Source: a virus. From it: 41,804 nt of DNA. The notes under the pieces are model-generated. The model made no database searches. It was not told where the DNA came from and saw nothing but the letters and a program-made list of their open reading frames with translations. The position numbers were made by a program, and so were the translations under genes. Each line of letters begins with the position of its first letter. Position 1 is the stretch's first letter. This document shows, one piece after another, positions 20,585-34,046 of the stretch. The stretch is from positions 1 to 41,804 of IMG/VR virus record IMGVR_UViG_3300024895_000001; one strand, 5' to 3'.

Positions 20585-21274
20585 TCATTGGCTTTGCTGA
20601 GTCACAGGATGGGTCGCAGGATTTATCCTGATTTCATTGGTGATTGATTCTTCCAGCGTCTTCATCATGTTTCGCGTAAACCCAACGGACATGGCCGCAA
20701 GAACCTTGTCGCCCCACTCGCCAATTGCCACATTCACACAGAAGCAAATTACCCGAAGATTGTCGAATCGATAGGGGCCGTTGGAATCGATCCGGTCGAT
20801 GCTGAGCTTAAATGGGTGTCTTGATGTCGTTCCGATCTCAAGTGGTATTCCAGTAAGGGCGCATACGCCGTTGCTGTGCAAAATTGCCTCTAGCATCTCC
20901 TGTTCCAGTAGGAAAAACTCAATATTACGTTCTCGCGCCGACCGCTTTAGATCGAGATACTTCTTTCGGATGGCACCCCGGGCTTGAAGTTGTTGGACGG
21001 TTTCGTTCCATGGCTGGCTGTGGTCAGCAAAAAGATTCTGGGCGGTTCTTTTTGCAACAGATGCCGAGTTATTTTCGATGATCGAATCCCTTAGTAGCCT
21101 GGCGGCATTCAGATTGTTCGATTTGACCGATTTACGAACGCGTTTCCCATCGATAACGAGATCGATAGTCAGGTTTCCGTTCCTGGATGCAATTCCGTCC
21201 TCAATCCGAATCCATCCTAGCGAAGTGGCATTACGTTCCTGTTTTTTCTGTTTTCGCATTTTCTTGTGCTCCAA
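20585..21274 (-). CDS. Hypothetical protein with C-terminal HNH/His-Me-finger-like (possibly degenerate) motif; low-GC cargo gene between int and attP
   Basis: The motif is ...CALTGIPLE...KLSIDRIDSNGPYRFDNLRVICFCVNVAIGEWG. The region is visibly more AT-rich than its flanks. An alternative start is at 21259. Confidence 0.45.
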   Translation of the reverse strand: MEHKKMRKQKKQERNATSLGWIRIEDGIASRNGNLTIDLVIDGKRVRKSVKSNNLNAARLLRDSIIENNSASVAKRTAQNLFADHSQPWNETVQQLQARGAIRKKYLDLKRSARERNIEFFLLEQEMLEAILHSNGVCALTGIPLEIGTTSRHPFKLSIDRIDSNGPYRFDNLRVICFCVNVAIGEWGDKVLAAMSVGFTRNMMKTLEESITNEIRINPATHPVTQQSQ

Positions 21275-22421
21275 ACATCGCGACAGCCTTGTTTCCGACG
21301 TCTGGTGTCGCTGATTTTATCCACCGCGCATATACCCGGGCCAGCATGCTCAGGTCGGCGTGGCCCATCTGGCTGGCGACCCATCCGAGGGGCTCGCCAG
21401 CGGTCAGCATCATTGAGGCGTAGGTGTGCCTGGTCTGGTATGGACGCCGGTACCGGGCGCCTGATTTCTTGATGGCGGTCTTCCATGGGCCCTGGCGAAT
21501 GGCCTCGTCGCCTTCCCACGGATTTCCGGTGCGTGGATCCCGGAAGATCACGCCGCCCTGCAGAAAGGTAATCTCCTTCTGACGCTTCAGTGCAGCCAGC
21601 GCTGGGGCCAGCAGCTTGACGTCGCGGACTCCCTTGCGGGTCTTGGTCGTCTCCGGTTCGTCCGCGAACTGCGTCTTGGCCTTGTTGATCCTGGCCTCTC
21701 CCCTTATCCAGTCGATATCATCCCAGGTCAGCGCGACCAGCTCCGAGGTGCGCAGGCCGGTCCAGAACAGGAACTCGAACATGTTCTTGTGCTGTGGCTC
21801 GTTCATCGCGGCCAGGATGGCTTCGCGTTCGATTGCTTCGAACGGGTCGACGTCGTCCTTGGTCTTGATGGTCTCGGCGTTTTCGTATTTCCAGCCGTAG
21901 AGCGGGTTGGTTTCGATCAGGTCGTCGTCGAGCGCATCCTGAAGCGCGGAGCGAAGAACGCTTTGCACGTTGGCCAGCCATTTGTTGCTGCATTCCTGCT
22001 TTTTGCACCAGTCGCGAACATGCACGCGGCGCAGCTCTGGAAGAAGGATGCGGCCAAGCTCCGTCTGGTTGATCATGGTGACGATCTTGTCGTAACCGGC
22101 CCAGGTGCTGGCCTTCAGTTGTTTCTGCTTCCCCTTGATCCAGCCTTCGAGATAGTCCTCGAGGAGCGTCCAGGCGCTTTGTGGGCGCTCGGCAAACTTG
22201 AAACGGTTCTTTGATTCCGGGAAGGTGACGGCGTAGTCGAAGGTATTGTGGGCGATCGCATCAAGGATCGCGGCCCGGTGCTGGGCGACCTTCTTTAGAT
22301 TTGCAGGGGTTGGGGCGAGCTTGAACGTTTCGCGGCACCGCTGGCCGCGATAGATGAAGTCGATCTCGATGCTTTTTTGGCTACGGGAGCGAACCCCGTC
22401 GAAAGTCCTTGTTCCACCCAT
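21231..22421 (-). CDS. int: Tyrosine integrase (lambda-type, with N-terminal arm-binding-like domain)
   Basis: Start ATG at 22421 (MGGTRTFDGV...IEIDFIYRGQRCRE). The catalytic region reads ...FWTGLRTSEL...RHTYASMMLTAGEPLGWVASQMGHADLSMLARVYARW (R..HxxR..Y pattern). The 505-aa ORF call is an upstream extension. Confidence 0.85.
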   Translation of the reverse strand: MGGTRTFDGVRSRSQKSIEIDFIYRGQRCRETFKLAPTPANLKKVAQHRAAILDAIAHNTFDYAVTFPESKNRFKFAERPQSAWTLLEDYLEGWIKGKQKQLKASTWAGYDKIVTMINQTELGRILLPELRRVHVRDWCKKQECSNKWLANVQSVLRSALQDALDDDLIETNPLYGWKYENAETIKTKDDVDPFEAIEREAILAAMNEPQHKNMFEFLFWTGLRTSELVALTWDDIDWIRGEARINKAKTQFADEPETTKTRKGVRDVKLLAPALAALKRQKEITFLQGGVIFRDPRTGNPWEGDEAIRQGPWKTAIKKSGARYRRPYQTRHTYASMMLTAGEPLGWVASQMGHADLSMLARVYARWIKSATPDVGNKAVAMFGAQENAKTEKTGT

Positions 22422-22579
22422 GCTTCGTATCCGTCCATGTCGATGACGACGTGCCGGTCCGGTGCTTTTCTGAATTCCCGGTCTTCCAGCCACACGCCGT
22501 CCCTTATCTTGGCACGCACGGCCTCTTCTGTGTAGCCCGTGAGCTCGCAGAATTTCGGGATGAGGACGTAGCGTGCCAT
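22295..22579 (-). CDS. xis: Excisionase-like DNA-binding protein
   Basis: MARYVLIPKFCELTGYTEEAVRAKIRDGVWLEDREFRKAPDRHVVIDMDGYEAWVEQG matches the Xis/DUF1233-like pattern. It lies directly upstream of int and overlaps it by about 127 nt. Confidence 0.7.
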   Translation of the reverse strand: MARYVLIPKFCELTGYTEEAVRAKIRDGVWLEDREFRKAPDRHVVIDMDGYEAWVEQGLSTGFAPVAKKASRSTSSIAASGAAKRSSSPQPLQI

Positions 22580-22582
22580 GGC

Positions 22583-22873
22583 TTATACCGCCTCCGGCAG
22601 GCTTTTGTCGTGGCGCGGTTTGTATTTGCGGATCTGGCCAGCATCGACCAGCGGCGTGGCGATATGCCAGAACTGGGCATTGGTCAGATTGAACTTGATC
22701 TGCATTTCCTTGGCCTCGACCTTGCGGGGCTTTTGGCTGCGCAACCACTCAAGGATCTCGGCGCGTTTGGCAATGACTTCAGGGCTGACATGTTTGGCTC
22801 TGGACTGGTCACGTTCGTTCTCGTGCCACCAGGTTGGCCGCTGGATCTGATCGATGGCAAGGGCTAGGCTCAT
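22583..22873 (-). CDS. Hypothetical protein
   Basis: 96-aa ORF, tightly packed in the operon. Confidence 0.5.
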   Translation of the reverse strand: MSLALAIDQIQRPTWWHENERDQSRAKHVSPEVIAKRAEILEWLRSQKPRKVEAKEMQIKFNLTNAQFWHIATPLVDAGQIRKYKPRHDKSLPEAV

Positions 22874-23391
22874 TGCTGGATGATCTCCATGAAGCGTTGG
22901 TAGAAGAGCAGCTCGGCGCGGTTGCTGTTGATGGCGATCAGCTTGGCGTCCATGGGGCGGACGCCGGTGAGGATCGGCCAGTCTGTGTCATCGTCAGGCA
23001 TCAAGTCGCGGCGCTCGGTGGCCAGCATGGTGCGGTCGGCGCTGGTGACCTGGTCGCTCTGTGATTCAGGAAGGCCGAAGCGGGTGCGGATCACGGCCTG
23101 CAGCTTGTCCTCGATGCGGCGATAGTCCGGCAACAGCTGCTTGAGTGGGCGCGGAATGTCCTTGATGTAGGCCTCGCTGGCGTCGTGCAGCAGTGCCTCA
23201 AGGGCAAACTGCTGATCGACGATCCTGCTGGCGACGACGCTGTGCTGGGCGACGGTGTAGTAGTACTTGGTCTGGCCGGCGAAGCGGGATTCCCGGGAGA
23301 GGCCCTTGATGATGTCCTCGATGCGGATCATGTCAGGCTGCGGGTCGATCAGGTCGATGTGGCGGCCTGAGTGGGTTAGTAGCCAGGTCAT
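22870..23391 (-). CDS. HD-domain phosphohydrolase
   Basis: ATG 23391 overlaps the methylase stop (ATGA). It has ...VAQHSVV...ALLHDASEAYIKDIP... (H...HD...D pattern). Confidence 0.65.
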   Translation of the reverse strand: MTWLLTHSGRHIDLIDPQPDMIRIEDIIKGLSRESRFAGQTKYYYTVAQHSVVASRIVDQQFALEALLHDASEAYIKDIPRPLKQLLPDYRRIEDKLQAVIRTRFGLPESQSDQVTSADRTMLATERRDLMPDDDTDWPILTGVRPMDAKLIAINSNRAELLFYQRFMEIIQQ

Positions 23392-25223
23392 GCTGCTCTC
23401 CGTGTGATAGACATTTCTGGAAGATTGGCGCGAACAAGTGCGGCGGCCAAAGGCGGGCAAACGCTGTTGCCGCACATGCGAACCTGCGCCGATTTGGTCA
23501 GGTTGATGCGCTGGCCGTTGTGATCGATGCCCCATTCCGTGATGTAGCTATCGGGGAAACCTTGGGCTTTGAAAAGCTCCTTCGGCGCCAGCATGCGCAG
23601 GCCTATGTCGGCGATCTGGTATTCCTCGCCGGCCACCGTGACGAGGCCGTAGCGGTCCTTGGTGGTGACGGTGTGAAGGGGTTCCTGCAGGTTCGGGTCT
23701 TGGTCGGTGCCGTAGTACTTGATCAAGAAGGCGCGGACCTCGGCGAAGTGGGTTCCTTGGGCGCTGACGGTATGAAGCGGCTCGCCGATTGGCTGGCCGT
23801 CTTGGCTGGTGCCGCGCAGCTTGACCAAGTTGCTGGTGACAATGCCGGCGGTCGCACCGTTGGCGGTGATGGTGTTGATCGGCTGTTCGATGTCACGGAT
23901 GCCGTGGCTGAATCGTTTGCCACCGTCTTGGCCTTCGCCGTGGCCCATGTGGATCAGGTTGGCGGTGACCAGGCTGTTGTGGTCGGTGCTGGTAACTGTG
24001 TGAAGCGGCTCGCCTTGCAGGCTGTGACCAACAACACCACCGTAGTGCTTCGCCATGAAAGCAGATACCAGCGCGTGTTTCTGGCTTCCGACAAGCGTTC
24101 CAAGCGGCTTTTCGATGTCCAGCGCCCTTGGCGCCTGGCCGTCGCGTTCGCCGTAGCCGGTTTGAACCAGGGTCGGCGCGATCAGCGCATGGTGGCCGCC
24201 CTTGGTCTGGGCGCAGATAGTGCGCAACGGCTCGTCAGCCGGCATGCTGCGCGGTGAGGATGCGTTGGCATGCTCAGTCAGAACTGGTGCGACCAAAGCC
24301 ATTTCGCCGCGGTGGGCAGCCGTGATTGTTGGAATGGGCTGCTCCATCGGATAGCGACGGTCGGCGCCCTGGTGTGTAAGCGGGACGATGAACGGCTCGG
24401 ATTCATCGACGACGTAGCGCATGATGCCCTTGGCAATCCGGCGCAACGTGGCCGGCGCAAGTTCGCGCTTGCGCTCAAAAATCGACGGACAAGGAATCGA
24501 CCAGTCGATGCACTCGGCAGCAGTGCGCCACGGCTGCATAACGACGCCATCCGGATTAAGGATGCGGTCTTTGCGGCCCTTGAAGCGCTTGTCAGCGGGG
24601 TCGTAGTGCGTTGCTTCCGGCCAGACAATCGGCTGACCATCTCGACGGGCGATCAGGAACAGGCGCTTGCGGATCGTCGGCGTACCGTAGTCGCAGGCGC
24701 GCAGCTCGCGGTGCTCGATCTGGTATCCATGGCGGCGCAGGGCGTTGCAGAAGGCATTGAACTCGCGGCCCTTGTTCTTCGGGCATGGCCGGGCCTTTCC
24801 ATCGCTATCAACGATCAACGGGCCCCAGGTGCGGAATTCTTCGACGTTCTCCAGCATGATGACGCGCGGCTTGGCGACGGCTGCCCATCGCAAAGCGACC
24901 CAAGCGAGGCCGCGAATCTTCTTCTCGACGGGCTTTCTGCCCTTGGCCTTGCTGAAATGCTTGCAGTCTGGGGAAAGCCAGACCAGACCTACGGGGCGCC
25001 CATGCGTGACTTCGCGCGGGTCGATTTCCCAGACGCTTTCGCAGTAGTGCTTCGTCTCTGGGTGGTTCGCCGTGTGCATGGCGACGGCTTCCGGATCGTG
25101 GTTGATGGCAATGTCGACGCGCCGGCCGAGCGCAAGCTCGATGCCGGTTGAGGCGCCACCGCCACCGGCAAAGTTGTCGATGATCAACTCGCCGTGAATG
25201 TCGAGATTTAGCTGCAGGGTCAT
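23388..25223 (-). CDS. DNA (cytosine-5)-methyltransferase with expanded, internally repeated target-recognition region
   Basis: Motif I is DNFAGGGGAS, motif IV SPDCKHFS, motif VI MLENVEEF, motif VIII TIRKRLFLIA and motif X GNSVCPPL. About 330 aa between motifs VIII and IX hold about 7 repeats of the [EQK]P[LI].T[ILV] module. Confidence 0.85.
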   Translation of the reverse strand: MTLQLNLDIHGELIIDNFAGGGGASTGIELALGRRVDIAINHDPEAVAMHTANHPETKHYCESVWEIDPREVTHGRPVGLVWLSPDCKHFSKAKGRKPVEKKIRGLAWVALRWAAVAKPRVIMLENVEEFRTWGPLIVDSDGKARPCPKNKGREFNAFCNALRRHGYQIEHRELRACDYGTPTIRKRLFLIARRDGQPIVWPEATHYDPADKRFKGRKDRILNPDGVVMQPWRTAAECIDWSIPCPSIFERKRELAPATLRRIAKGIMRYVVDESEPFIVPLTHQGADRRYPMEQPIPTITAAHRGEMALVAPVLTEHANASSPRSMPADEPLRTICAQTKGGHHALIAPTLVQTGYGERDGQAPRALDIEKPLGTLVGSQKHALVSAFMAKHYGGVVGHSLQGEPLHTVTSTDHNSLVTANLIHMGHGEGQDGGKRFSHGIRDIEQPINTITANGATAGIVTSNLVKLRGTSQDGQPIGEPLHTVSAQGTHFAEVRAFLIKYYGTDQDPNLQEPLHTVTTKDRYGLVTVAGEEYQIADIGLRMLAPKELFKAQGFPDSYITEWGIDHNGQRINLTKSAQVRMCGNSVCPPLAAALVRANLPEMSITRRAA

Positions 25224-26176
25224 ACTTCCACCTCTTCACCAAGGCTGCCGGCCGGGTAGAAGACGATGGCCGGGCCAGAAGTTTCAATTTCGGCCTTTTT
25301 TTCGGCCTGACCGTAGCTTTCCGTGTCGCCAAGCTCCGGCGACAGCGTGCCCATGATTTCGAATTCAATGGCCTGCTGGCGGGTGATGCGGAAGCCGGCG
25401 GCGTGTTTGTGGCCGCCACCGCCGAAGCGCTTGGCGATGGTTTCGACGTTGGCGCCGTCTGGTGCTGAGCGCAGGGAGAAGCGGCGGCCGTCTTCGTCGT
25501 CGTAGTAGGTGGCGGCGAACGGGTTGCCTTCGGCCAGCCTGGCACCAACGTCGCTGGCGAACATCCATGGGGCGTTGGCGGCCGGTATGTGGGTGCCGGC
25601 GATGTTGATCCAGCGGGTGGCGTTGTCGGCGATGGCGGCGACGTCGGCGCTGTGCTTGCGGATCAGGCTGCGGCCTTCGCGCTCGAGCTCGACCGGCGGC
25701 ATGGTCATCAGCTGATCCCAATGCTCGAAGGTCATCGGGTAGGAAAACACGGCAGCCATGATTTCCCGTGTCATGGGCAGCTTGAACTGCCACAGGTCGC
25801 GGTCCTGGATGTGATCGAACAGCAGCGGCTGCATTTCGCCAGGGAACAGGTGTTGCCAGGTGAGTGCGGCGCCGCATTTGGTGTTGTCGAAGATGGCGCG
25901 GGCTTTGGCCGGCAGGTCTTGCAGATCGGCCTGCGAGGTGTCGTGGTGGTCGATGATTAGCACGTCGTTGGCTTGTTCGATAAGCTGCAGCATGACGTCG
26001 CGTTTGTAGCTGAAGTCGACAATGATGACGTTGCGGCCGGTGACGTCGGGCGGGGCTTTGCCGTAGATTCCGGGGTGGAATTCGACGAGGCCGGCATGAA
26101 AGCGGCGAACGGCCCAGGCTGCGGCAAAGCCGTCGGTGCAGGCGTGGTGGTAGATGCAGAGCGGCAAGTGAGTCAT
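25220..26176 (-). CDS. DHH-family phosphoesterase (DHH + DHHA1-like, GGGH motif)
   Basis: The motifs are CIYHHACTDG..., ...IIDHHDT..., and ...FGGGGHKHAAGF. ATGA overlaps with both the RT stop and the methylase start. Confidence 0.7.
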   Translation of the reverse strand: MTHLPLCIYHHACTDGFAAAWAVRRFHAGLVEFHPGIYGKAPPDVTGRNVIIVDFSYKRDVMLQLIEQANDVLIIDHHDTSQADLQDLPAKARAIFDNTKCGAALTWQHLFPGEMQPLLFDHIQDRDLWQFKLPMTREIMAAVFSYPMTFEHWDQLMTMPPVELEREGRSLIRKHSADVAAIADNATRWINIAGTHIPAANAPWMFASDVGARLAEGNPFAATYYDDEDGRRFSLRSAPDGANVETIAKRFGGGGHKHAAGFRITRQQAIEFEIMGTLSPELGDTESYGQAEKKAEIETSGPAIVFYPAGSLGEEVEV

Positions 26177-27543
26177 GCTGATTTCCTATAGGTCTTGGAT
26201 AGGTCGGATTTGATGCTGTGGCCGCGCTGGCGCAGGGTGTTGGCGAGCAGGGCGCGGTCGTGGTGGCTGTGGCTGGCCTGGCGGAGCAGGCCGAAGTAGC
26301 TGTTGCCGGTGGCGAACAGGTCGGCGGCCGGCATTGCCCTGGTGCGGCCGATGGCGTCGTTGAAGGTGCGCCGGCGCAGGGTGCGGCGGTGGGGCTTGAT
26401 GACCTGGCCGACGAAGTCAATGCCACGGTCGATCGGCTGCAGGATGGTTTTCTTGGGGTTGATGCGGGCGGCCAGTTGGTCGGCAAGCAAGGTCTCGATC
26501 TTGGCCTTGGCGGCGTTGAGCCATTGGGGCGATTCGTGGAGCAGGACGAAGTCGTCGACGTAGCGGATGTAGTGCTTGGCGCGTAGTTCGTGTTTGACGA
26601 ACTGGTCGAGCACGTCGAGATACACGTTGGCGAAGAACTGGCTGCTCAGGTTGCCGATGGGCAGGCCTTTGTGGGCGGGCTGGTTGGTCAGGCGCTTGTG
26701 GGGTGGTACCAGATCCAGTTGGCGGGGGTCGCCGTGCAGTTCGTAGTTCTGGCGCGGGTCGTGGAAAAGGACGGCCTCGGTCAGTTGCAGCCACCAGTGC
26801 TCGGTGATGTGCCGGGCGAGCAGGCGCTGCAGGATGTTCTTGTCGATGCTGACGAAGAAGTTGGCGAGATCCAGCTTCAGGTAGAAGGCGGGCTTGGTCC
26901 AGTTCTGGGTGATGCTGCGCACCTTGGCTTCGAGCCGCTGGGCAGCGTAGAGGGTGCCGCGGCCGGGGATGCAGGCGCAACTGTCGGCGATGAAGCGGGT
27001 GTAGAAGCGCGGCGAGATATGGTTGTGCAGCAGGTGGTGCACGATGCGGTCGCGGAACTGGCCGGCCCAGACTTCGCGGGCCTTCGGTCGGGTGATGACG
27101 AAGCAGATGGAGCGGCCGGGTTGGTAGCTGCCGTCTTCGAGTTCGTCATGCAGTTCGCGCAGGTTGTGTTCCAGGTTGGCTTCGAAGGCCAGCGCACTGG
27201 CGCTGTTGCGCTTGGTGCGCCGGCAGTCGAAGTAGGCTTGTACCAGTTCGGTAAAGGTGAAATCAGCGGGTGCTTTCCAATCTGCGGACGGCACGAGCAC
27301 GGAGCTCGTTGTTCTTGTGGTTGTTGTTCTGGTTGCCGTTGTTGAAGTTCTGATACCAGGCGTAGCCGGAATCGGACCTGTCGTGCTTTCTACGTCGCCC
27401 GGCCGACTGTTCAGCGGGGAAACTGCGCCGGACCTTTCCTGCGTGCTGCAGGAGGTCTCCGGGGTGCGCATGTCGGTGGCCTCGTGAGCCAGCGGCACGA
27501 CCAGATTGAATATGCGCTCAGTCATGGCGGCCTTGACCTCCAT
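26173..27543 (-). CDS. Diversity-generating retroelement reverse transcriptase
   Basis: Its RT motifs include LKLDLANFF, the DGR-typical LPIGNLSSQFFANVYL, and YIRYVDDFVLL. It is preceded by Avd and TR. The most plausible start is 27525 (GGAGG upstream), and 27543 and 27471 are also in frame. Confidence 0.9.
   Translation of the reverse strand: MEVKAAMTERIFNLVVPLAHEATDMRTPETSCSTQERSGAVSPLNSRPGDVESTTGPIPATPGIRTSTTATRTTTTRTTSSVLVPSADWKAPADFTFTELVQAYFDCRRTKRNSASALAFEANLEHNLRELHDELEDGSYQPGRSICFVITRPKAREVWAGQFRDRIVHHLLHNHISPRFYTRFIADSCACIPGRGTLYAAQRLEAKVRSITQNWTKPAFYLKLDLANFFVSIDKNILQRLLARHITEHWWLQLTEAVLFHDPRQNYELHGDPRQLDLVPPHKRLTNQPAHKGLPIGNLSSQFFANVYLDVLDQFVKHELRAKHYIRYVDDFVLLHESPQWLNAAKAKIETLLADQLAARINPKKTILQPIDRGIDFVGQVIKPHRRTLRRRTFNDAIGRTRAMPAADLFATGNSYFGLLRQASHSHHDRALLANTLRQRGHSIKSDLSKTYRKSA
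27278..27377 (-). repeat. DGR template repeat (TR), ~100 bp, AAC-rich on the sense (minus) strand
   Basis: It aligns ungapped to three VRs, and every mismatch is at a + strand T, which is a sense-strand A. In the VR frame it encodes ...GYAWYQNFNNGNQNNNHKNNELRARAVRRL. Confidence 0.9.
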
Positions 27544-27892
27544 GAAGCGGGCGCGATGCGGACTTGCGCCACCCGTTGGCCTGCTTCCCGATGCTGGTGG
27601 TGAGTTCGACGGCGCGGGCGTAGCCGTCCTTGCTGATGAGGTGCTTGTCCATGGACAGGCGCAGCATCAGCTCGGCGACCTGCAGGCGCTCGACCAGTTC
27701 CAGCAGATGCGGTGCCTTGTCCTGGGCGACGTTGGCCCGGAAGATCAGCACCGTGATTTCGATGCACTCGGTGCTGATCTTGTCGCCGATAGATCGCTTG
27801 AAGTCTCGCTGCATGTTCTTGACGAGACTGGTGACGACATCGAGCAGGTCGTAGGCGACCTTGTAGATGGGAAGATGGGTATGGGTGGCCAT
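27518..27892 (-). CDS. avd: DGR accessory variability determinant (Avd; four-helix-bundle family)
   Basis: 124 aa. MATHTHLPIYKVAYDLLDVV...ITVLIFRAN...LLELVERLQVAELMLRLS... resembles Avd/23S-rRNA-IVS four-helix-bundle proteins. It lies between the target gene and TR/RT. Confidence 0.8.
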   Translation of the reverse strand: MATHTHLPIYKVAYDLLDVVTSLVKNMQRDFKRSIGDKISTECIEITVLIFRANVAQDKAPHLLELVERLQVAELMLRLSMDKHLISKDGYARAVELTTSIGKQANGWRKSASRPLHGGQGRHD

Positions 27893-27910
27893 GCTGATTA
27901 AATGATCGAA

Positions 27911-28378
27911 TTACTCAATGATCAATCTGCGGACGGCACGAGCACGGAGCTCGTTGCGCTCGTGGTAGTAGCGCTGGCGGCCGTTGCCGAAGTCCTGACA
28001 CCAGGCGTAGCCGGAATCGGACTCATTGGCTTCGCAGGACCAGTACCAACGGTCTTCGAACTGGTCTTTGAGGTTGGCGTAGAGCAGCGATTGTTCGCGG
28101 CGGGTGGGCAGGTTTCCGCCTTTGGCTTGTGCCCACTTCCATGCGTCTTCCCAGTTGATGTCGTCGGCCTGGCCGGGGAGAAGCACCAGGTGATAGCTGG
28201 GCTCGCCATCCTTGCCAACGATCAGGCCGGCGTAGTGTTCGCCGGGGTGCAAATGGATGGTGACTTCGGGGAAGTAGAACTCGGCGGCAAGCTGGTTGGC
28301 CTGGGCTTCGAAGGTGGCGATCTTGGCGGCCAGTGCATCGGCGTCGGCCTTGATCTGTTCAAGCGTGATGGTGGTCAT
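27911..28378 (-). CDS. DGR target protein 1 (DUF1566/Lcl-C-terminal, C-type-lectin-fold-like) with C-terminal VR1
   Basis: 155 aa with ...GGNLPTRREQSLLYANL...WYWSCEANESDSGYAWCQDFGNGRQRYYHERNELRARAVRRLIIE. VR ends 12 nt before the stop. Confidence 0.85.
   Translation of the reverse strand: MTTITLEQIKADADALAAKIATFEAQANQLAAEFYFPEVTIHLHPGEHYAGLIVGKDGEPSYHLVLLPGQADDINWEDAWKWAQAKGGNLPTRREQSLLYANLKDQFEDRWYWSCEANESDSGYAWCQDFGNGRQRYYHERNELRARAVRRLIIE
27923..28022 (-). repeat. DGR variable repeat VR1
   Basis: 100-bp ungapped match to TR with 13 mismatches, all at TR adenines (sense strand). Confidence 0.9.
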
Positions 28379-28402
28379 AGCGTCCTCGAAATGACTGAAT
28401 GA

Positions 28403-28762
28403 TTAAATGGGCAATCTGCGGACGGCACGAGCACGGAGCTCGTTGTCCTTGCGGCGGTAGAGCTGGTCGCCGTCGTTGAAGTACTGAAACCAGGCGTAGC
28501 CGGAAGCGGAATGGTGCTGCTCGTTGCTCCAGTACAAGTCTTTGTTGAACTGGTCGCGATGGTTGGCCCAGAGCATGGCCTGCTCGATGCGGTTGGGCAG
28601 ATCACCGCCGATGGATTTGGCCCAGTCGATCTGGGCTTGCCATTCGGCGTCGTCGTTGTCGCCAGGGAGCAGGATGAGGTGATAGACCTCGCCGGATGTG
28701 TCGCCAATGGCGCCGATGTAGGTTTCGCCTTCGGCAAGCGGGGGGGGTTGAAGTTGTTGCAT
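28403..28762 (-). CDS. DGR target protein 2 (DUF1566-like) with C-terminal VR2
   Basis: 119 aa with ...GGDLPNRIEQAMLWANH...LYWSNEQHHSASGYAWFQYFNDGDQLYRRKDNELRARAVRRLPI. Confidence 0.85.
   Translation of the reverse strand: MQQLQPPPLAEGETYIGAIGDTSGEVYHLILLPGDNDDAEWQAQIDWAKSIGGDLPNRIEQAMLWANHRDQFNKDLYWSNEQHHSASGYAWFQYFNDGDQLYRRKDNELRARAVRRLPI
28412..28510 (-). repeat. DGR variable repeat VR2
   Basis: About 99-bp ungapped match to TR with 12 mismatches, all at TR adenines. Confidence 0.9.
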
Positions 28763-28783
28763 GGGTGTCCTTTCCAGTTGGAA

Positions 28784-29764
28784 TTAATTGGGTTGAGCAG
28801 TCAGCTGGTCGAGCGTCCCGCCGTTGGTGATCCAGAATTCAACCCACTTGGGCTGCCGGCCTCGGCCGCTCCAGGTGAGTTCTCGGTTCTGCGGATGGAT
28901 ATATTTGGCGCCGATCATGTTGGCGAAGCGGGTGCTGTTATCCGGCTCCTGCTCTGGTGATGGCATGCCTTGTTCGGCGTTTTTCTCGGCTTGTTCCTTG
29001 AGTAGATCAAGGAATGCGAGGCGCTTGATGTCAAGATTCTCGGTCAGCACAAAGCTGATTCTGTCGTCCCAAGTGAGGGCGAGCTTGGTAGGTAGTTTTC
29101 CGCTGGCAAGGTCAGCGCGGACGCGCTCGGTTTCGATTGGGCAGCGCTTGTAGGAAACGGCGGATTTATCCTCGCCAGCGGATTGCAGTTCGCAGTCTCT
29201 ATCGATAGTGAATCCGGCTGGTGCTTCACCGCCGGCAAGCCAGTCGGCCATGGCTGAGGTCGGTGAAATAGTGCTATGGAGCGGCAGTAGCGGGAAATCG
29301 TCGAGCGAGTGGCGGAGTAGTTCGATAAGCTCGGCTGCTTGGCTGGCGCTGCCGTCGATGGCAAGCCATCCGTTATCTCGGTCGATCCAGGCAAACGTAT
29401 TGCGCCGCTTGGTAAAGGCGCGCGGCATCAGTTCTTCTGTCACGCGCTCTTTGAGTTCGCGGAGCTGCTTGCGGCCAGGTGCGTGGCCTTGTTCATCGGT
29501 CAGCTTGTCGGCCCTGGCGCTGACTTCGTCGTTGATCACCGAGGCGGGAAGCAGGCGCTGCTCAATGGTCAGGGCGATCAGCCACTGGCGATTCTGGGTG
29601 TAGGCCAGTGCGCCATCCTTGCGTGGTGATGTCCATCCCTTGCTGGTGGCTTGATGGGAGGCGCAATGGGCAAACATGGCGCGAGCCAGTTGTTCTTCAA
29701 GTTGCCCTGGCGTGATTTTCCAGTCGGATTTCAGGCGATAGACCTGGAGGTTTTTGAAGAACAT
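28784..29764 (-). CDS. rdgC: RdgC-like recombination-associated protein fused to a C-terminal H-NS-type DNA-binding domain
   Basis: The N-terminus MFFKNLQVYRL... and ...LLPASVI..., ...LMPRAFTKRR..FAWID..NGWL resemble RdgC. The C-terminus AKYIHPQNRELTWSGRGRQPKWVEFWI...GGTLDQL matches the H-NS/MvaT TWxGxGRxPxW motif. The start at 29764 shares one base with the upstream stop. Confidence 0.7.
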   Translation of the reverse strand: MFFKNLQVYRLKSDWKITPGQLEEQLARAMFAHCASHQATSKGWTSPRKDGALAYTQNRQWLIALTIEQRLLPASVINDEVSARADKLTDEQGHAPGRKQLRELKERVTEELMPRAFTKRRNTFAWIDRDNGWLAIDGSASQAAELIELLRHSLDDFPLLPLHSTISPTSAMADWLAGGEAPAGFTIDRDCELQSAGEDKSAVSYKRCPIETERVRADLASGKLPTKLALTWDDRISFVLTENLDIKRLAFLDLLKEQAEKNAEQGMPSPEQEPDNSTRFANMIGAKYIHPQNRELTWSGRGRQPKWVEFWITNGGTLDQLTAQPN

Positions 29765-30549
29765 CAGATAGCCTCTTTGAATTCTATGGTCGTGGTCTTT
29801 TTGCAGCGAGCGGTGCCGACCGGGATCAGCGCGAGAACATCGGCTCGACCTGCGGCCTTGGCGGCAGATTTGGCGGCTTCTACAGCCCGTTCCGGCTTGG
29901 CGCAAAGACGCGGCTTACGCTTTGGTACGCGGATGACGTAGCCGATGGCTACATCCTTGATGTCGACAGGCGGTTCGTCGGTCTCAGCGCTGGTTTTGTG
30001 CAGCGATTCAAGACGGTTGCGCAGCTGGTGATAGCCTTCGCAGCCGTAGGCCTGGGCCACGTCTTGCCAGCATTGCAGGGCGCTCTCTGCCAGGGCAAGC
30101 TGGTTTTTGTAGTCCTCAGCGGTCGCGAAGTGTTCGTCGCGCTGCATCTCTGCGTTGCGGAGTTGTTCGCGAAGTTCTACGGCGGCGTTGTGTCGATCTA
30201 CAGCAATTTCTACGGCGCGCCGTTCGATCGTTTCGGGTGCTTGGCGTTGAATCTGGCGGCGACCTGGCTCCTTCTTCTGCAGCGGATTGCGGCGCGATTC
30301 TGAGCGGTGTTCGGATACCCACTTCGGCCAGTCGGCGGCAACGACGGCAGACGAGAGCCGCCATTCGATGGTGTCTTGCTGGCCCGGGCGTTTGACCGTG
30401 CTGGTGACGACGAACCCGCTGGCGACTGCTGCGTTCATGGTGCCGCTCAGTTGCTTGTGCTCGATACCGGCGGCTTGGGAGAGTTCGGCAGAACGGATGC
30501 CCGGCCGCTTTTCAATGATGTTGAGGGCTTTCTGGGTTTTAGTTTCCAT
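29764..30549 (-). CDS. Hypothetical protein (N-terminal winged-helix-like, central coiled coil)
   Basis: 261-aa ORF with a good start context. No family was recognised. Confidence 0.55.
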   Translation of the reverse strand: METKTQKALNIIEKRPGIRSAELSQAAGIEHKQLSGTMNAAVASGFVVTSTVKRPGQQDTIEWRLSSAVVAADWPKWVSEHRSESRRNPLQKKEPGRRQIQRQAPETIERRAVEIAVDRHNAAVELREQLRNAEMQRDEHFATAEDYKNQLALAESALQCWQDVAQAYGCEGYHQLRNRLESLHKTSAETDEPPVDIKDVAIGYVIRVPKRKPRLCAKPERAVEAAKSAAKAAGRADVLALIPVGTARCKKTTTIEFKEAI

Positions 30550-30574
30550 GGTGGCGATCAGACGAAAAGGTTGA

Positions 30575-30826
30575 TCAGTACGAACGAGGTGCTGGGTCGG
30601 GAAGGCCGCGGTCGATCAGCGTCGTGCTCTGTGCATCAATCAGTCGCTTGTGCCTTGCATGAGCCTCCAATAGCTGCTTGCTAAGGTGGTTGATCTGGAT
30701 CTGGATCGCATCGCGCTCATCAAGCAGGCCTGATAGCGATAGCTGCAGATCAGTGATCATTGCCTCCTGTGATTTGATACGCAGGCCAAAGAAGACGCGG
30801 TAAATCCACTCGATCAGGCGGCGCAT
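30575..30826 (-). CDS. Hypothetical small protein
   Basis: ATG 30826 is preceded by GGAGG. 83 aa, coiled-coil-like. The longer 175-aa ORF call is Arg/Pro-rich and looks like a spurious extension. Confidence 0.5.
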   Translation of the reverse strand: MRRLIEWIYRVFFGLRIKSQEAMITDLQLSLSGLLDERDAIQIQINHLSKQLLEAHARHKRLIDAQSTTLIDRGLPDPAPRSY

Positions 30827-31014
30827 GGCATAGCCTCCAGGTAGGCTGTGGCTGGGGTCTTGATCTTGACGGCCAGCTTGACCCAGCCGGCAGGAACGAC
30901 AGGCGATACCACGGCGCGGCGACCGTTGGTGATGATGTGCCAGCCGCGGACCTTGGCGGCCTGGGCGATTTCTTCGAGCAGTGCGTCGTCGGGAACGATT
31001 TGGGCGATGATCAT
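30814..31014 (-). CDS. Hypothetical small protein
   Basis: ATG 31014 is preceded by GGGAGG. 66 aa (MIIAQIVPDDALLEEIAQAAKVRGW...). Confidence 0.5.
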   Translation of the reverse strand: MIIAQIVPDDALLEEIAQAAKVRGWHIITNGRRAVVSPVVPAGWVKLAVKIKTPATAYLEAMPCAA

Positions 31015-31217
31015 GATGCCTCCCTGGTTGAAATGGATTTGAAGGCCCGGTAGTTGGGTTGTTGTTCGGCCAGCCGCATGGATTCCTCCGGGCTGCTGGC
31101 AATGACGGTGGCGACTACCTTCCTGGCCGATTGATTGGCGTTCAGGCAGGATTTGCGGTGCATGGTCACTTCGTAGGGGCGTGGGGAGCATCTGGTTTTC
31201 ATGCTTGGCTCTGGCAT
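31011..31217 (-). CDS. Hypothetical small protein
   Basis: 68-aa ORF whose stop overlaps the next start (ATGA). The start is uncertain. Confidence 0.35.
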   Translation of the reverse strand: MPEPSMKTRCSPRPYEVTMHRKSCLNANQSARKVVATVIASSPEESMRLAEQQPNYRAFKSISTREAS

Positions 31218-31786
31218 GGCGCTGTGTTTGCCGCGGCCTCGGCGGCGACAATGCGGTCAAAGAGTGCGGCGGCTTCGATGGTGATCGGGTGCAGGACTGC
31301 ACGCTCAATGGCGCTCATGTCGTACGTGGTTATTTCAGGCGCTATCCTGTTTTTTGCCGCCCGATAGGCCATGGATTTCGCGATGGATTCCAGTGCCTCT
31401 GCCAGCTCTGTCTGCATGACCTCGGCCATTGGTTTTCTGAAATGCCCGCCGGTGCGAATGAGCGACAGAATGTAGTTGTCCGAGTAGTCGTGCTTCATCA
31501 CGGCCAGCTTCTGCACGGTAGTTTCCATGGGCAGCGTGGCGGCGAGCCGCCTTGCTTCTGGGAGCGCCTTGCGGATGTCGTCTTCCATGCGATTTTCTTC
31601 AGCCTTGGCTACATTGGCAGCCTGTATGGCTTCCCTGGCTTGTGCCTCGATGATCGTGGCGGCTTTGCTCAGGGCGAGGCGCTCTGCTTCATTGGAGATG
31701 GATTCGGCCAGTTTGCGGACTTGTGTAGCCGTCCGGCGAAGCGCCGATCCTTTGTCCTTGATGGACTGCGATTGGGTCTTGGTCAT
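31199..31786 (-). CDS. Hypothetical protein
   Basis: About 195 aa from MTKTQSQS... (the ORF maximum starts at 31813). Helical, with no family recognised. Confidence 0.5.
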   Translation of the reverse strand: MTKTQSQSIKDKGSALRRTATQVRKLAESISNEAERLALSKAATIIEAQAREAIQAANVAKAEENRMEDDIRKALPEARRLAATLPMETTVQKLAVMKHDYSDNYILSLIRTGGHFRKPMAEVMQTELAEALESIAKSMAYRAAKNRIAPEITTYDMSAIERAVLHPITIEAAALFDRIVAAEAAANTAPCQSQA

Positions 31787-31793
31787 GTTTCGC

Positions 31794-31910
31794 TCAGTGC
31801 TGGATCGGGGCAATTGCCGGGATGCTCATGGTCTTCTCGAAGCCCATTCCCATGAACGACAGGGCGGTGCGACGGTAGAAGGCGCGCTGCTGTTGTTCGG
31901 TGTGGGTCAT
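31794..31910 (-). CDS. Possible 38-aa ORF (MTHTEQQQRAFYRRTALSFMGMGFEKTMSIPAIAPIQH)
   Basis: ATG 31910 is preceded by GAGG within the conserved post-VR block. It is below the ORF-track cutoff. Confidence 0.3.
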   Translation of the reverse strand: MTHTEQQQRAFYRRTALSFMGMGFEKTMSIPAIAPIQH

Positions 31911-31931
31911 GTCAGCCTCGAAATGACTGAA

Positions 31932-32282
31932 TTACTGAATGATCAATCTGCGGACGGCACGAGCACGGAGCTCGCCGCGCTTGCGGGTGTCGTCCTGGTA
32001 GCCGTAGCTGAAGTGCTGATACCAGGCGTAGCCGGAAACGGACTCAGCGCTCGACCAGTACCAGGTCTGTTCGAACTCTTCCTTGGCAGTGGCGAATAGC
32101 AGGGCCTGCTCGACGCGGTTAGGCAAGCCGCCGCCTTGCTTGGCAGCCCAGTTCATGGACTTCTTCCAGGTGCCCTGGAAGCTGCCTGGCAGCAGGATGA
32201 TGTGGGTTGTGGTGCCGTCAGCAGAGACGATGCCGCCGATGTAGCGTTCGCCATCGGCGAGGGGGATGGTGGGGTGGGTCAT
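31932..32282 (-). CDS. DGR target protein 3 (DUF1566-like) with C-terminal VR3; first gene of the early-left operon
   Basis: 116 aa with ...GGGLPNRVEQALLFATA...WYWSSAESVSGYAWYQHFSYGYQDDTRKRGELRARAVRRLIIQ. A GGAG RBS lies 8 nt upstream of the ATG. Confidence 0.85.
   Translation of the reverse strand: MTHPTIPLADGERYIGGIVSADGTTTHIILLPGSFQGTWKKSMNWAAKQGGGLPNRVEQALLFATAKEEFEQTWYWSSAESVSGYAWYQHFSYGYQDDTRKRGELRARAVRRLIIQ
31944..32043 (-). repeat. DGR variable repeat VR3 (about 3.4 kb upstream of VR2 in the operon)
   Basis: 100-bp ungapped match to TR with 13 mismatches, all at TR adenines. Confidence 0.9.
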
Positions 32283-32312
32283 GGTGGGCTCCGTTGATTG
32301 ATGTGCGGATTA

Positions 32313-32341
32313 ATTATCACGAACGCGATAATTATTGTCAA
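32313..32341 (-). promoter_or_regulatory. Early-left (PL-like) sigma70 promoter: TTGACA - 17 nt - GATAAT on the minus strand
   Basis: -35 is at 32341..32336 and -10 at 32318..32313, read directly. It lies about 30 nt upstream of the first minus-strand gene. Confidence 0.7.
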
Positions 32342-32355
32342 CGCAAATGCGATAA
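32314..32355. promoter_or_regulatory. Two repressor operators at the PL-like promoter (TTATCAC-gaac-GCGATAA; TCAACGC-aaat-GCGATAA), 24-bp phase
   Basis: They share the inverted-repeat half-site (TTATCGC/GCGATAA) with the cI/cro intergenic region. One covers the spacer/-10 and the other the -35. Confidence 0.65.
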
Positions 32356-32404
32356 TTTTGGCGGGATATGCTCACGCTCGGATTTTCGGGTGGCTGAAAA
32401 TGGT

Positions 32405-32432
32405 ACAAAAAAGCCCGCGCTCGGCGGGCTTC
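32405..32432 (-). terminator. Rho-independent terminator ending the repressor/TerB-BRCT transcription unit
   Basis: The minus strand reads agcccgcc-gagc-gcgggct followed by TTTTTT. It lies about 45 nt downstream of the 32474 stop. Confidence 0.7.
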
Positions 32433-32473
32433 ATCTAGACGGAGATAGGCGTTAGCAGCTCTCGCTGTTCAGG

Positions 32474-33121
32474 TTATCTGGCCGCCTCTTCCATTGCCTT
32501 GACCCATTGGGTTTCGGAAACGATAGCTGGAAGACCATAGCGTTCCCGCCGCTGTAGCGCTGTTTCTATCTTTCTGCCGTAGGTAGTGTTGGCCCAGTTT
32601 TCTTCGATGACTGAGCCAACCACTAGGTAATCCAGCTTGCCAGTAACATTGTCGACTGGCATCGCTTCCAGTTTAAGTACGGCGCGCTCACAGGCGGCGC
32701 GGGTGCCAAAATGGAAGTTTCCCGTAAAGCAGAACGTCATGTTTCTGAAAAAAATGGATGGATCGTCATCGATAGGGACTGATGGCGCTTCTGGCGTGCA
32801 TGATCCGGTCTCTGCAAAATGATTACCGGAAAGTTGCGAGATGGATAGAAACAGGCTGTCGCGCTCATCTTGCGTGATGACGCCATCTGCCAGTATTTCA
32901 TCGATTCGTCTGGCTATTGAGCTGCCCGGCCAGACGGCCGTCGCATCTGCGTTCTCAGCGAGCCAGGTGCGCAGAAAAATAACTTCACGGTCATTGATCT
33001 GTCCGTCGGCGACAAGGCCGGTGCAGATGCCTAGAAGCGATTGAGCAGCTTTGGTGAGCGCCCGGGTCTGCAGGGCTTTTGCAGTAGCGTAGTCAGAATC
33101 CATAGATATGCCCTTTGTCAT
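32474..33121 (-). CDS. TerB-like N-terminal domain + C-terminal BRCT domain protein (lysogeny-expressed accessory gene candidate)
   Basis: It has paired ADGQINDREVIFLRTWL and ADGVITQDERDSLFLSI acidic helices (TerB-like). It also has FCFTGNFHFGTRAACERAVLKLEAMPVDNVTGKLDYLVVG (BRCT-like, as in LigA). An alternative start is at 33103. Confidence 0.6.
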   Translation of the reverse strand: MTKGISMDSDYATAKALQTRALTKAAQSLLGICTGLVADGQINDREVIFLRTWLAENADATAVWPGSSIARRIDEILADGVITQDERDSLFLSISQLSGNHFAETGSCTPEAPSVPIDDDPSIFFRNMTFCFTGNFHFGTRAACERAVLKLEAMPVDNVTGKLDYLVVGSVIEENWANTTYGRKIETALQRRERYGLPAIVSETQWVKAMEEAAR

Positions 33122-33177
33122 ATTTTAAAACGATAAATTGGTCTGTACCATCCGCTGCCGCCATGTCTGCATGTCAA

Positions 33178-33627: not shown

Positions 33628-33691
33628 ATCGCGATTGTGCTAATAAATGATATCGCAAAGGCGTTGACGTGACTTATCGCAATCGCGATAA
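33626..33691. promoter_or_regulatory. Three 18-bp operators (O3 33626-33643, O2 33650-33667, O1 33674-33691) spaced exactly 24 bp start-to-start
   Basis: O1 is TTATCGC-aatc-GCGATAA (perfect palindrome arms). O2 is ATATCGC-aaag-GCGTTGA. O3 is ATATCGC-gatt-GTGCTAA and overlaps the repressor ATG. Confidence 0.7.
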
Positions 33692-33692
33692 T
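33664..33692 (+). promoter_or_regulatory. Early-right (PR-like) promoter: TTGACG - 17 nt - GATAAT
   Basis: Read directly. The -10 ends 7 nt before the cro-like ATG (33700) and there is no Shine-Dalgarno between them. Confidence 0.7.
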
Positions 33693-33699
33693 CATCGCC

Positions 33700-33930: not shown

Positions 33931-34046
33931 GATGGCCAAGCCAGTGGATTCTCTTCTGACCCGGTTGGTGTTCTCGGAATTCCTTTGGGGTCTGACCGCG
34001 TTCTTCGCAAAACCCCATGAATGGGTGGTGGCGGAGCGGATGAGGA

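Follow-up and report, generated by a model that had tools for sequence, protein, structure and literature searches.

Among the closest known systems is the diversity-generating retroelement (DGR) of Bordetella phage BPP-1, in which the gene order is mtd-avd-TR-brt and sequence is transferred from a template repeat (TR) to a variable repeat (VR) specifically at adenines. The VR of BPP-1 forms the C-terminus of a C-type-lectin-fold protein, a tail fibre that is the one target of the element, and a GC-rich hairpin follows the VR. The structured spacer RNA of BPP-1 (Rfam RT-10) lies 3' of TR (PMC5737381; bioRxiv 10.1101/2023.10.23.563531). Weinberg et al. (2017, PMC5737381) described the RNA motifs RT-1 to RT-19 only as "nearby to reverse transcriptase genes", and RT-10 is the sole motif that they linked to a DGR. 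The reverse transcriptases (RTs) of DGRs are defined by (I/V/L)GxxxSQ in domain 4 and YxDD in domain 5 (PMC3521204), and more than 30,000 DGRs have been catalogued (PMC8144416).

A second point of reference is the Legionella pneumophila DGR, whose target LdtA is an exported surface lipoprotein encoded on an integrative conjugative element, together with the DUF1566 "category d" / CLec2 VR class of Wu et al. (2018, PMC5758913). According to these authors, short proteins consisting of DUF1566 alone make up about half of the category d targets, multiple targets occur in about 15% of DGRs, and a DGR in a prophage often has a target within that prophage that is not adjacent to it.

The locus described here lies in a 41,804-nt stretch of viral DNA from a JGI metagenome contig, and that whole stretch is referred to as the window. 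It shares with BPP-1 the order target, avd, TR, RT, adenine-specific transfer from TR to VR, the presence of Avd, and a VR as the C-terminus of a protein that is predicted to have the C-type-lectin fold. Rather than one target, however, it has three, one of them about 4.6 kb from TR, and these are small stand-alone proteins of the early operon instead of a tail fibre. In addition, the RNA motif RT-15 is found 5' of TR, the RT core directly adjoins TR, AT-rich, phased ATT boxes take the place of the GC-rich hairpin after the VRs, and the RT ORF as annotated includes TR. Compared with the DiGReF "group 3" architecture (Schillinger et al. 2012, PMC3521204), the whole TR and about 130 nt of structured RNA are inside the RT ORF.

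The locus is read, with a probability of about 0.9, as a complete DGR of a temperate siphovirus-like phage, placed in its early-left operon, with mutagenic retrohoming into three targets. The TR/VR pattern, the RT, Avd, the predicted lectin fold and the phage context all support the original prediction of a DGR in a temperate phage. A transcript comprising the avd 3' end, the RT-15 domain, TR and the RT coding sequence would be bound by RT and Avd. As TR is copied to cDNA, random nucleotides would be incorporated opposite template adenines. This cDNA would then take the place of the homologous 100-nt VR in which each of three paralogous genes ends (27911-28378, 28403-28762 and 31932-32282). 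Rewriting would be restricted to the ligand-facing residues of three small DUF1566/Lcl_C C-type-lectin-like proteins.

Template and variable repeats

27278-27377, minus strand: template repeat (TR); 29 sense-strand adenines, 19 of the 29 altered in at least one VR
27923-28022, minus strand: VR1; 13 mismatches with TR, all at template adenines
28412-28510, minus strand: VR2; 12 mismatches with TR, all at template adenines
31944-32043, minus strand: VR3; 13 mismatches with TR, all at template adenines

The original prediction held that TR aligns without gaps to three VRs with 13, 12 and 13 mismatches, every one at a template adenine. An ungapped comparison returned the same counts, with 38 of 38 mismatches at template adenines and none elsewhere inside the repeats. 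Each mismatch replaces a + strand T of TR, equivalent to A on the sense (minus) strand, with C, G or A in the VRs. A thirteenth difference in VR2, C>A at column 100, is the edge of homology; apart from this column, no VR differs from TR at any non-adenine position. Given that T occupies 29 of the 100 TR positions, the chance of 38 of 38 is about 0.29^38, or roughly 4e-21. Immediately beyond the VR, identity between the paralogous target genes is no more than about 72%.

The invariant ends of the repeats occur in exactly four copies in the window, where 0 are expected by chance; therefore, the window contains one TR and three VRs and no others. Read in the target frame, TR encodes SDSGYAWYQNFNNGNQNNNHKNNELRARAVRRL, within which lies the AAC-rich stretch YQNFNNGNQNNNHKNN that had been pointed out earlier, and the variable residues are mostly AAC (Asn) codons in TR. 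The locus has the TR/VR pair with differences limited to template adenines that is expected of DGRs. VR3 and its gene (31932-32282), although named in the same prediction, fall outside the span first proposed for the element, 26173-28762.

Reverse transcriptase and Avd

26173-27543, minus strand: RT ORF as called, 456 aa; Pfam RVT_1 58.7 bits; PDB 8ub7 bRT, E 4e-33; motifs PIGNLSSQ and YVDD
27518-27892, minus strand: avd, accessory four-helix-bundle protein, 124 aa; Pfam bAvd 44.5 bits, gathering score 40

The translated RT ORF carries IGNLSSQFFANVYL and YVDDF, as had been claimed, and PIGNLSSQ fits (I/V/L)GxxxSQ as YVDD fits YxDD. The best relative of solved structure is the Bordetella phage DGR RT (8ub7, E 4e-33), compared to E 8e-9 for group II intron RTs and E ~5e-4 for retron-type RTs in the same PDB comparison. 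Beyond the SQ motif, fingertip and palm residues of bRT are conserved, and the aligned residues include bRT positions K29, F66, R74, I181, G182 and Q187 and the catalytic aspartates. The motifs and the best structural relative support assignment as a DGR-type RT. Assignment to the group II, retron, DRT or AbiA type was rejected, given that the NCBIfam scores were all sub-threshold and far under the cut-offs: 93 bits against 300 for group II, 50 against 235 for retron St85, 40 against 200 for Drt3a and 22 against 250 for AbiA.

Avd is present in most DGRs, but not all. The neighbour predicted to be Avd-like adjoins TR and RT and scores above the Pfam bAvd gathering score, while its score with NCBIfam DivGenRetAVD is 47.6 bits, under the cut-off of 80. 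Proteins that share its 90% cluster carry the name "four helix bundle protein".

Structured RNA upstream of the template

27374-27556, minus strand: structured RNA, Rfam RF03018 (RT-15); helices P0 to P4, from the avd 3' end to the first TR bases
27502-27510, minus strand: helix H1 5' strand, UUCAAUCUG; long-range pairing with the TR 3' end
27276-27284, minus strand: helix H1 3' strand, CAGAUUGGA; last 7 nt of the TR/VR homology plus 2 nt

The RNA directly 5' of TR belongs to Rfam RT-15, scoring 177.1 bits where the gathering score is 82, over model positions 1-192 of 192 and with identical helices. In contrast to the description by Weinberg et al., the motif can be placed precisely, in that RT-15 stops exactly at the 5' edge of the DGR TR in the window and in loci L043 and L045. 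The structure is supported by covariation across 53 relatives, in which 96% of cells are paired, compared with 30-42% in slid controls, and 26 of the 40 pairs have compensatory changes. For helix H1, 89% of cells are paired and compensatory changes are found in 5 of 9 pairs. A conserved AAUCUG stretch, which is unpaired in the Rfam RT-15 model, covaries with the TR 3' end.

Helix H1 may bring RT-15 to the 3' end of TR, by analogy to the template:primer duplex of BPP-1, and its conservation is consistent with a role in priming. The cDNA would probably begin near the invariant CCGCAG. The lineage supplies a concrete genomic role for RT-15, which had been an orphan Rfam motif, and raises the question of how DGR RNA is primed with a structured domain upstream of the template.

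Phage context and target proteins

27911-28378, minus strand: target 1 (T1), 155 aa; N-terminal helix, then DUF1566/Lcl_C C-type-lectin-like domain; carries VR1
28403-28762, minus strand: target 2 (T2), 119 aa; stand-alone lectin-like domain with a weak Pfam Lcl_C match, paralogue of targets 1 and 3; carries VR2
31932-32282, minus strand: target 3 (T3), 116 aa; remote, about 4.6 kb from TR, first gene after a strong promoter-like site; carries VR3
32313-32341, minus strand: sigma-70-like promoter upstream of target 3; TTGACA, 17 nt, GATAAT, 11 of 12 matches

The element was predicted to reside in a temperate phage, and the host is indeed a complete temperate siphovirus-like phage with genes for the terminase, portal, major head protein, tape measure, tail fibre J, integrase and a CI-like repressor. 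The promoter upstream of target 3 has an operator-like repeat in common with the rightward promoter region (33674-33700), and is likely to be the early-left promoter that drives the targets and DGR genes.

Each VR lies at the 3' end of its target ORF, stopping 9-12 nt short of the stop codon, and the encoded fold is predicted to be that of a C-type lectin. The AlphaFold2 model of target 1 (pLDDT 93.7) has as its best PDB match 8q4e_A, the C-terminal domain of Legionella Lcl, and also matches other C-type-lectin folds. Target 1 has 1238 homologues, some of which are named "DUF1566 domain-containing protein", while the Pfam Lcl_C matches of the targets are under the gathering score. The DUF1566/Lcl_C domain is shared with LdtA and the category d / CLec2 class, but whereas LdtA is exported, no lipobox or signal sequence was found in the targets of this phage early operon, and a hydrophobic N-terminus is present in almost none of the targets of the lineage.

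The targets do not fit the Mtd-like class of tail-fibre or receptor-binding proteins, which are virion tail proteins of the structural module: their genes stand in a leftward early operon, flanked by the repressor on one side and by recombination and DGR genes on the other. A repeat scan of the window found no VR in the tail fibre J homologue (12427-16998). The targets are small non-structural early proteins, and they probably work inside the cell early in infection.

Proposed recipient marking

27901-27926, minus strand: AT-rich element directly 3' of VR1; ATT boxes at +1, +8, +16 and +24
28390-28415, minus strand: ATT-box element directly 3' of VR2; boxes as for VR1
31922-31947, minus strand: ATT-box element directly 3' of VR3; boxes as for VR1

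The ATT boxes, phased by 8 nt, follow each of the three VRs and are absent after TR. Across the lineage, 144 of 207 unique VR flanks have at least three of the four boxes; among 108 TR flanks the number is 0, and among 207 shuffles it is 2. An IMH-type element would combine an invariant, GC-rich 3' end common to TR and VR with a feature that sets the VR, as recipient, apart from TR, as donor. The GC-rich 3' segment GCTCCGTGCTCGTGCCGTCCGCAG is invariant and common to all four repeat copies, and a GC-rich hairpin like that of BPP-1 was not found in the VR flanks. This pattern of conservation suggests that the ATT boxes may flag the VRs, and not TR, as recipients, and it raises the question of how a VR is marked if there is no hairpin.

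Activity and alternative readings

The element belongs to a very large lineage in betaproteobacterial prophages, of which about 400 related loci were found, 191 in genomes and 204 in viral contigs. An adenine-biased TR/VR pair is present in 146 of 161 loci (160 fetched and the window), with 1 to 4 VRs each. The mismatches across the family, 3727 at A and 120 elsewhere, are a partly circular measure, given that the scan demanded matches at non-A positions. The polymorphism check that had been proposed for related genomes was run on the closest relative, which has an RT that is 92% identical and the same mutagenic TR core. Four almost identical contigs of this relative, from different samples, differ at 14 of 3375 columns; the proximal VR accounts for 13 of these 14, and 11 of the 13 coincide with template adenines. 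Such VR variation shows, at the level of sequence, natural activity in the lineage, and the element is probably active in this exact phage as well.

That the DGR is intact in sequence but now inactive in this phage, with the VR differences a fossil of past retrohoming, is improbable. Pattern scans for alternative VR alleles of this exact phage were empty, and T1, T2 and T3, each a singleton in the 90% clusters, are identical on every public contig that carries them, including one from a second sample. However, missing variants are weak evidence, because consensus assemblies conceal minor alleles, and the nearest relative does have VR alleles between otherwise identical contigs. All of the ORFs are intact with catalytic motifs present, and the three VRs have zero non-adenine differences despite about 28% divergence in the flanking paralogous sequence, which argues for recent homogenisation by TR. 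Homogenisation by ordinary recombination or gene conversion of the C-terminal repeats of paralogues, with the RT an unrelated retron, group II intron, Abi or DRT neighbour, is scarcely credible. The three targets are clearly paralogues and the RT has weak matches to group II, retron, DRT and AbiA models, but gene conversion cannot yield 38 of 38 differences at the adenines of TR, a fourth copy that is outside any target gene. Those models also fall far under their cut-offs (for instance, 93 bits against 300 for group II), while the closest structural relative is a DGR RT, and the SQ motif and Avd are both present.

The start of the RT is less settled. Homology to bRT, from bRT residue 14, begins at about 27261, or ORF residue 96, and the upstream 94 codons traverse TR and the RT-15 RNA to overlap the avd stop. 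A gene-calling artefact, in which RT begins at a GTG within the 3' end of TR while the open frame merely mirrors conserved RNA-element sequence, is a substantial possibility, if somewhat disfavoured. The extension is low in complexity (Thr- and Arg-rich) and overlaps strongly structured RNA, related loci are not independent such that an ancestral open frame can persist, and the window has GTG codons at the right place, inside TR; apart from these, no canonical start codon was found just before the RT core. However, the RT frame is open from 95 nt 5' of TR through TR in 119 of 146 loci, compared with 9 and 24 for the other frames. The spacing between the invariant ATCTGG and the RT core takes 22 distinct lengths, yet belongs to a single modulo-3 class in 102 of 127 loci, and the P4 hairpin changes in length by multiples of 3 in 105 of 120. 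In nine loci, the stretch from the TR start to the RT core lacks any ATG, GTG or TTG. Conservation of the frame across the lineage therefore suggests that the overlap of the RT ORF with TR and the structured RNA is real rather than an accident of annotation.

Place among known elements

The element is a typical representative of a family that is very common, and short DUF1566-type targets, multiple targets and non-adjacent targets have all been described already (PMC5758913). As a DGR it adds little; its worth is as a clean and compact example, of about 2.6 kb and one remote target, of a lineage with hundreds of members in Betaproteobacteria. An arrangement that combines a permuted DGR RNA (RT-15 5' of TR, a priming strand from upstream, and RNA that is also translated as an N-terminal extension of RT) with recipient marking by ATT boxes instead of a cruciform and with diversified proteins that are intracellular is, taken as a whole, unlikely. 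If it were true, the signal-less targets of the early-left operon could be intracellular variable binders of host factors, such as defence proteins, rather than receptor-binding proteins. How a phage benefits from hypermutating small, apparently cytoplasmic, early-expressed lectin-like proteins is a further question that the locus raises. Both the non-structural, early character of the targets and the very common lineage of the element had escaped the original prediction.

Template and Variable Repeats

The element at 26173-28762 is a standard diversity-generating retroelement (DGR) of a common and already surveyed class, and the original prediction made a real finding and interpreted it correctly. 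The DGR itself is of low interest. That interest is raised modestly by four side observations: the position of the RT-15 RNA domain with its covarying helix, a reading frame that crosses both that RNA and TR (the template repeat), the flanks with ATT boxes, and targets that are early, non-structural and free of signal sequences. The region 26000-32400 was read, and the four repeat copies that it contains were set against each other column by column.

27278-27377, minus strand: template repeat (TR), the donor copy, ungapped to all variable repeats
27923-28022, minus strand: variable repeat VR1, 13 mismatches with TR, no gaps
28412-28510, minus strand: variable repeat VR2, 12 mismatches with TR, no gaps
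31944-32043, minus strand: variable repeat VR3, 13 mismatches with TR, no gaps

It had been claimed that three VRs match one TR without gaps and differ from it only at template adenines, and the recount of 13, 12 and 13 mismatches bears out both statements. At all 38 mismatches TR has a plus-strand T (A on the sense strand, which is minus), and the VRs have C, G or A in its place; a C>A change at column 100 of VR2 marks where homology ends. Given that T occupies 29% of TR positions, the chance of a 38/38 pattern is about 4e-21 by our own arithmetic. All four copies agree at every non-adenine position, whereas identity among the target genes is no more than about 72% immediately beyond the VR. 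The invariant ends, when searched across the 41.8-kb window, mark exactly four copies. Translated in the target frame, TR reads SDSGYAWYQNFNNGNQNNNHKNNELRARAVRRL, and the residues at its Asn-rich positions differ among the three VR translations.

At least one VR is changed at 19 of the 29 TR adenines, and the two adenines in the terminal CAGATTG are changed in none of the three. Family-wide, mutagenesis extends to at least 18 nt before the invariant G. About 21 nt ahead of that G, the per-site mutation frequency drops from about 0.5 to at most 0.05, a drop that is confounded by selection on scaffold residues and cannot place the cDNA start.

The Reverse Transcriptase and Its Lineage

26173-27543, minus strand: reverse transcriptase (RT) ORF, Pfam RVT_1

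The best solved-structure relative of the RT in a PDB search is the DGR RT of Bordetella phage BPP-1 (bRT; 8ub7, E 4e-33), as compared to E values of 8e-9 to 7e-8 for group II intron RTs and about 5e-4 for retron-type RTs. In the alignment, PIGNLSSQFFANVY faces PIGSLTSQLFANVY of bRT, and YVDD faces YMDD. These motifs fit the definition of a DGR RT, (I/V/L)GxxxSQ plus YxDD (PMC3521204). Assignment to the group II, retron, DRT or AbiA types was rejected, as every such NCBIfam model scores far under its cut-off, and the claim of a DGR-type RT is upheld.

Relatives of the RT were confirmed 191 times in a one-genome-per-species collection, led by Dechloromonas sp. CZR5 (86%) and followed by many Rhodocyclales, Burkholderiales and other Pseudomonadota, and 204 times in IMG/VR (best 92%). 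By our own scan, an adenine-biased TR/VR pair lies on the RT strand in 146 of 161 sequences (160 loci and the window), with one VR in 29 sequences, two in 84, three in 31 and four in 2. The window layout, two tandem targets and one remote, is therefore common in the lineage. The lineage also matches published classes: category d, or CLec2, makes up 14% of DGRs, and half of those have short proteins with DUF1566 only; DGRs with several targets make up about 15%; and a target that is not adjacent has been described for DGRs in prophages (PMC5758913).

An RNA Domain Upstream of the Template

A multi-helix domain is conserved between the avd stop and TR (27381-27510 in the window), as seen in an alignment of 53 sequences across the avd-TR-RT junction. 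The domain is RT-15 of Rfam (RF03018); at 177 bits, the match exceeds the family's gathering score of 82.

27374-27556, minus strand: RT-15, from the avd 3' end to exactly the TR 5' edge
27502-27510, minus strand: 5' strand of helix H1, UUCAAUCUG, just 5' of the multi-helix domain
27276-27284, minus strand: TR 3' end, CAGAUUGGA, the partner strand of H1

RT-15 also stops exactly at the TR start in the related loci L043 (7713-7893) and L045 (7709-7918), and is missing from the seven more distant relatives scanned. Those who described the motif made no DGR assignment for it (PMC5737381). In H1, a conserved AAUCUG strand that is unpaired in the Rfam model pairs with the last TR bases, CAGAUU, with compensatory changes at 5 of 9 pairs among the 53 relatives. 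For the 40 specified RNA pairs, 96% of cells are paired versus 30-42% with slid partners, and compensatory changes occur at 26 of the 40, in 165 cells; none of 500 shuffles reaches any of these measures. An alternative pairing from RNAalifold, between the TR 3' end and part of the RT coding sequence (columns 392-395/464-467), shows no compensatory change and was rejected in favor of H1.

In BPP-1, a structured spacer RNA 3' of TR envelops the RT, pairs with an upstream avd segment, and forms a template:primer duplex with the TR 3' end (bioRxiv 10.1101/2023.10.23.563531). In the window, by contrast, TR lies directly against the RT core, with both the structured domain and the TR-pairing strand upstream. 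H1 resembles the BPP-1 template:primer duplex in geometry, although its partner strand is upstream of TR. By this analogy, we infer that the window RNA may be permuted relative to that of BPP-1 while keeping its geometry.

Homology to bRT starts at residue 96 of the called RT ORF, and the RT frame was located across related loci by tblastn anchoring. In 119 of 146 loci, that frame stays open between a point 95 nt upstream of TR and the end of TR; the corresponding counts for the other two frames are 9 and 24. Across 22 distinct lengths, the interval between the invariant ATCTGG and the RT core belongs to a single class modulo 3 in 102 of 127 loci. Length changes in P4, a hairpin within RT-15, are multiples of three in 105 of 120 loci, and the avd stop overlaps a conserved ATG (ATGACTGA). 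Taken together, these features suggest that the RT is probably translated through RT-15 and TR (27262-27543, minus strand). If so, one RNA would serve as structured element, template and coding sequence. DGRs in which TR overlaps the annotated RT ORF are already recognized as group 3 of DiGReF (PMC3521204).

Sequences 3' of the Variable Repeats

The VR 3' flanks are 73% AT, versus 50% after TR. They carry ATT boxes at +1, +8, +16 and +24 after CCGCAG, with 8 nt as the dominant spacing. At least three of four boxes are present in 144 of 207 unique VR flanks, as compared to 0 of 108 TR flanks and 2 of 207 shuffles.

27901-27926, minus strand: ATT-box element after VR1, 4/4 boxes
28390-28415, minus strand: ATT-box element after VR2, 4/4 boxes
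31922-31947, minus strand: ATT-box element after VR3, 4/4 boxes

The boxes are candidates for the mark that sets the VRs apart from TR as recipients. Examined for hairpins or cruciforms, the sequences 3' of the VRs show folding energies no better than those of shuffles, and a GC hairpin is missing there. The invariant 3' end contains a small CGAGC/GCTCG hairpin, which was rejected as the mark of a VR because it occurs in TR and VRs alike and cannot tell them apart.

Avd and the Target Proteins

27518-27892, minus strand: Avd ORF, above the Pfam bAvd gathering score and below the NCBIfam Avd cut-off

The Pfam score agrees with the predicted Avd-like neighbor gene; a PDB sequence search with Avd gave no match. 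The three target ORFs (T1, T2 and T3, ending in VR1, VR2 and VR3) encode 155, 119 and 116 aa, with Pfam matches to Lcl_C (DUF1566) that are all sub-threshold. Given that the PDB sequence search gave only a match of T1 to MMP-9, which was rejected as spurious, the fold had to be predicted. An AlphaFold2 model of T1 from 49 sequences (mean pLDDT 93.7) has its top PDB match in the C-terminal domain of Legionella Lcl (8q4e_A, E 1.8e-4, TM 0.51/0.60), with intimin and numerous C-type-lectin-like proteins next in rank. In a viral structure library, the model matches viral C-type lectins as well as DUF1566 proteins of phages. T1 has 1238 homologues at E<1e-5, some of them named "DUF1566 domain-containing protein".

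Across the lineage, the 282 target ORFs are about 159 aa long at the median and lack a lipobox, and 11 have a hydrophobic N-terminal stretch. Roux et al. divided viral DGR targets into "structural" and "unknown" (PMC8144416), and the window targets would go to the latter group. Codons 6-8 of T2 (QPPP) contain a run of eight G at 28740-28747 (C8 on the sense strand) that is missing from close relatives; it could be a slippage-prone tract or merely incidental.

The Phage Genome and Its Early-Left Operon

The window is the entire genome of a temperate siphovirus-like phage; the temperate lifestyle, already proposed, is supported by integrase and CI-like repressor genes, found alongside head, tail, terminase and portal genes.

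625-1989, plus strand: major head protein
9218-11527, plus strand: tape measure
12427-16998, plus strand: tail fibre J, carries no VR
21231-22421, minus strand: integrase
33178-33627, minus strand: CI-like repressor
38606-40333, plus strand: terminase
40330-41580, plus strand: portal
Minus strand: RdgC-like protein, DHH phosphoesterase and C5 DNA methyltransferase
32341-32313, minus strand: near-consensus sigma-70 site (TTGACA, 17 nt, GATAAT), just upstream of T3

Megablast of 22000-34000 against GenBank phages found no related annotated phage, with only the DNA methyltransferase gene matched (73-76%). A JGI metagenome contig, Ga0066401_1000004 (3300004184), is 100% identical to the window across the 12.4 kb compared. 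The DHH-family phosphoesterase gene (25220-26176, minus strand) overlaps the RT stop codon by 4 nt, and the gene for the 611-aa C5 DNA methyltransferase comes next.

The DGR lies in the leftward early operon. Given the sigma-70-like site directly upstream, T3 is probably the first early-left gene; after a gap of about 3 kb come T2, T1, avd, TR and RT. An operator-like repeat is common to the T3 promoter (32314-32340) and the divergent rightward promoter region (33664-33700, plus strand; repeat at 33674-33700), beside the CI-like repressor, suggesting that the DGR targets are probably repressor-controlled early genes. The sequence downstream of VR3 (31905-31947) resembles the VR2-T1 junction (28373-28415), with 83% identity over a 138-nt repeat family, and the resemblance takes in the start of a 38-codon ORF (ATG 31908-31910). 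This resemblance suggests that the remote T3 was derived by duplication of the T2 region.

Signs of Recent Activity in the Lineage

T1, T2 and T3 are singletons in their own 90% clusters, and exact-protein look-ups of the three and of Avd returned identical copies only, from two contigs of about 41 kb and a short contig of a sister sample. A scan of IMG/VR and the JGI metagenome collection for VR alleles (TR with every A as N) gave 0 matches and missed the source contig too, and is thus uninformative.

The nearest relative is the phage of locus L081, whose Avd shares a 90% cluster with that of the window. It is represented by four contigs from different samples (L166-L169), with 14 differing columns over 3375 nt. 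Of these 14, all but one fall inside a 45-nt stretch of the proximal VR (columns 1399-1443), and TR and the second VR are invariant in all four contigs. The expectation that polymorphism would be confined to positions of TR adenines holds for 11 of the 13 VR differences and fails for two, which are at non-adenines adjoining mutated adenines. The proximal target has three VR alleles among four otherwise identical contigs, and this pattern of variation is what mutagenic retrohoming would leave if it had occurred recently, in nature, within the lineage.
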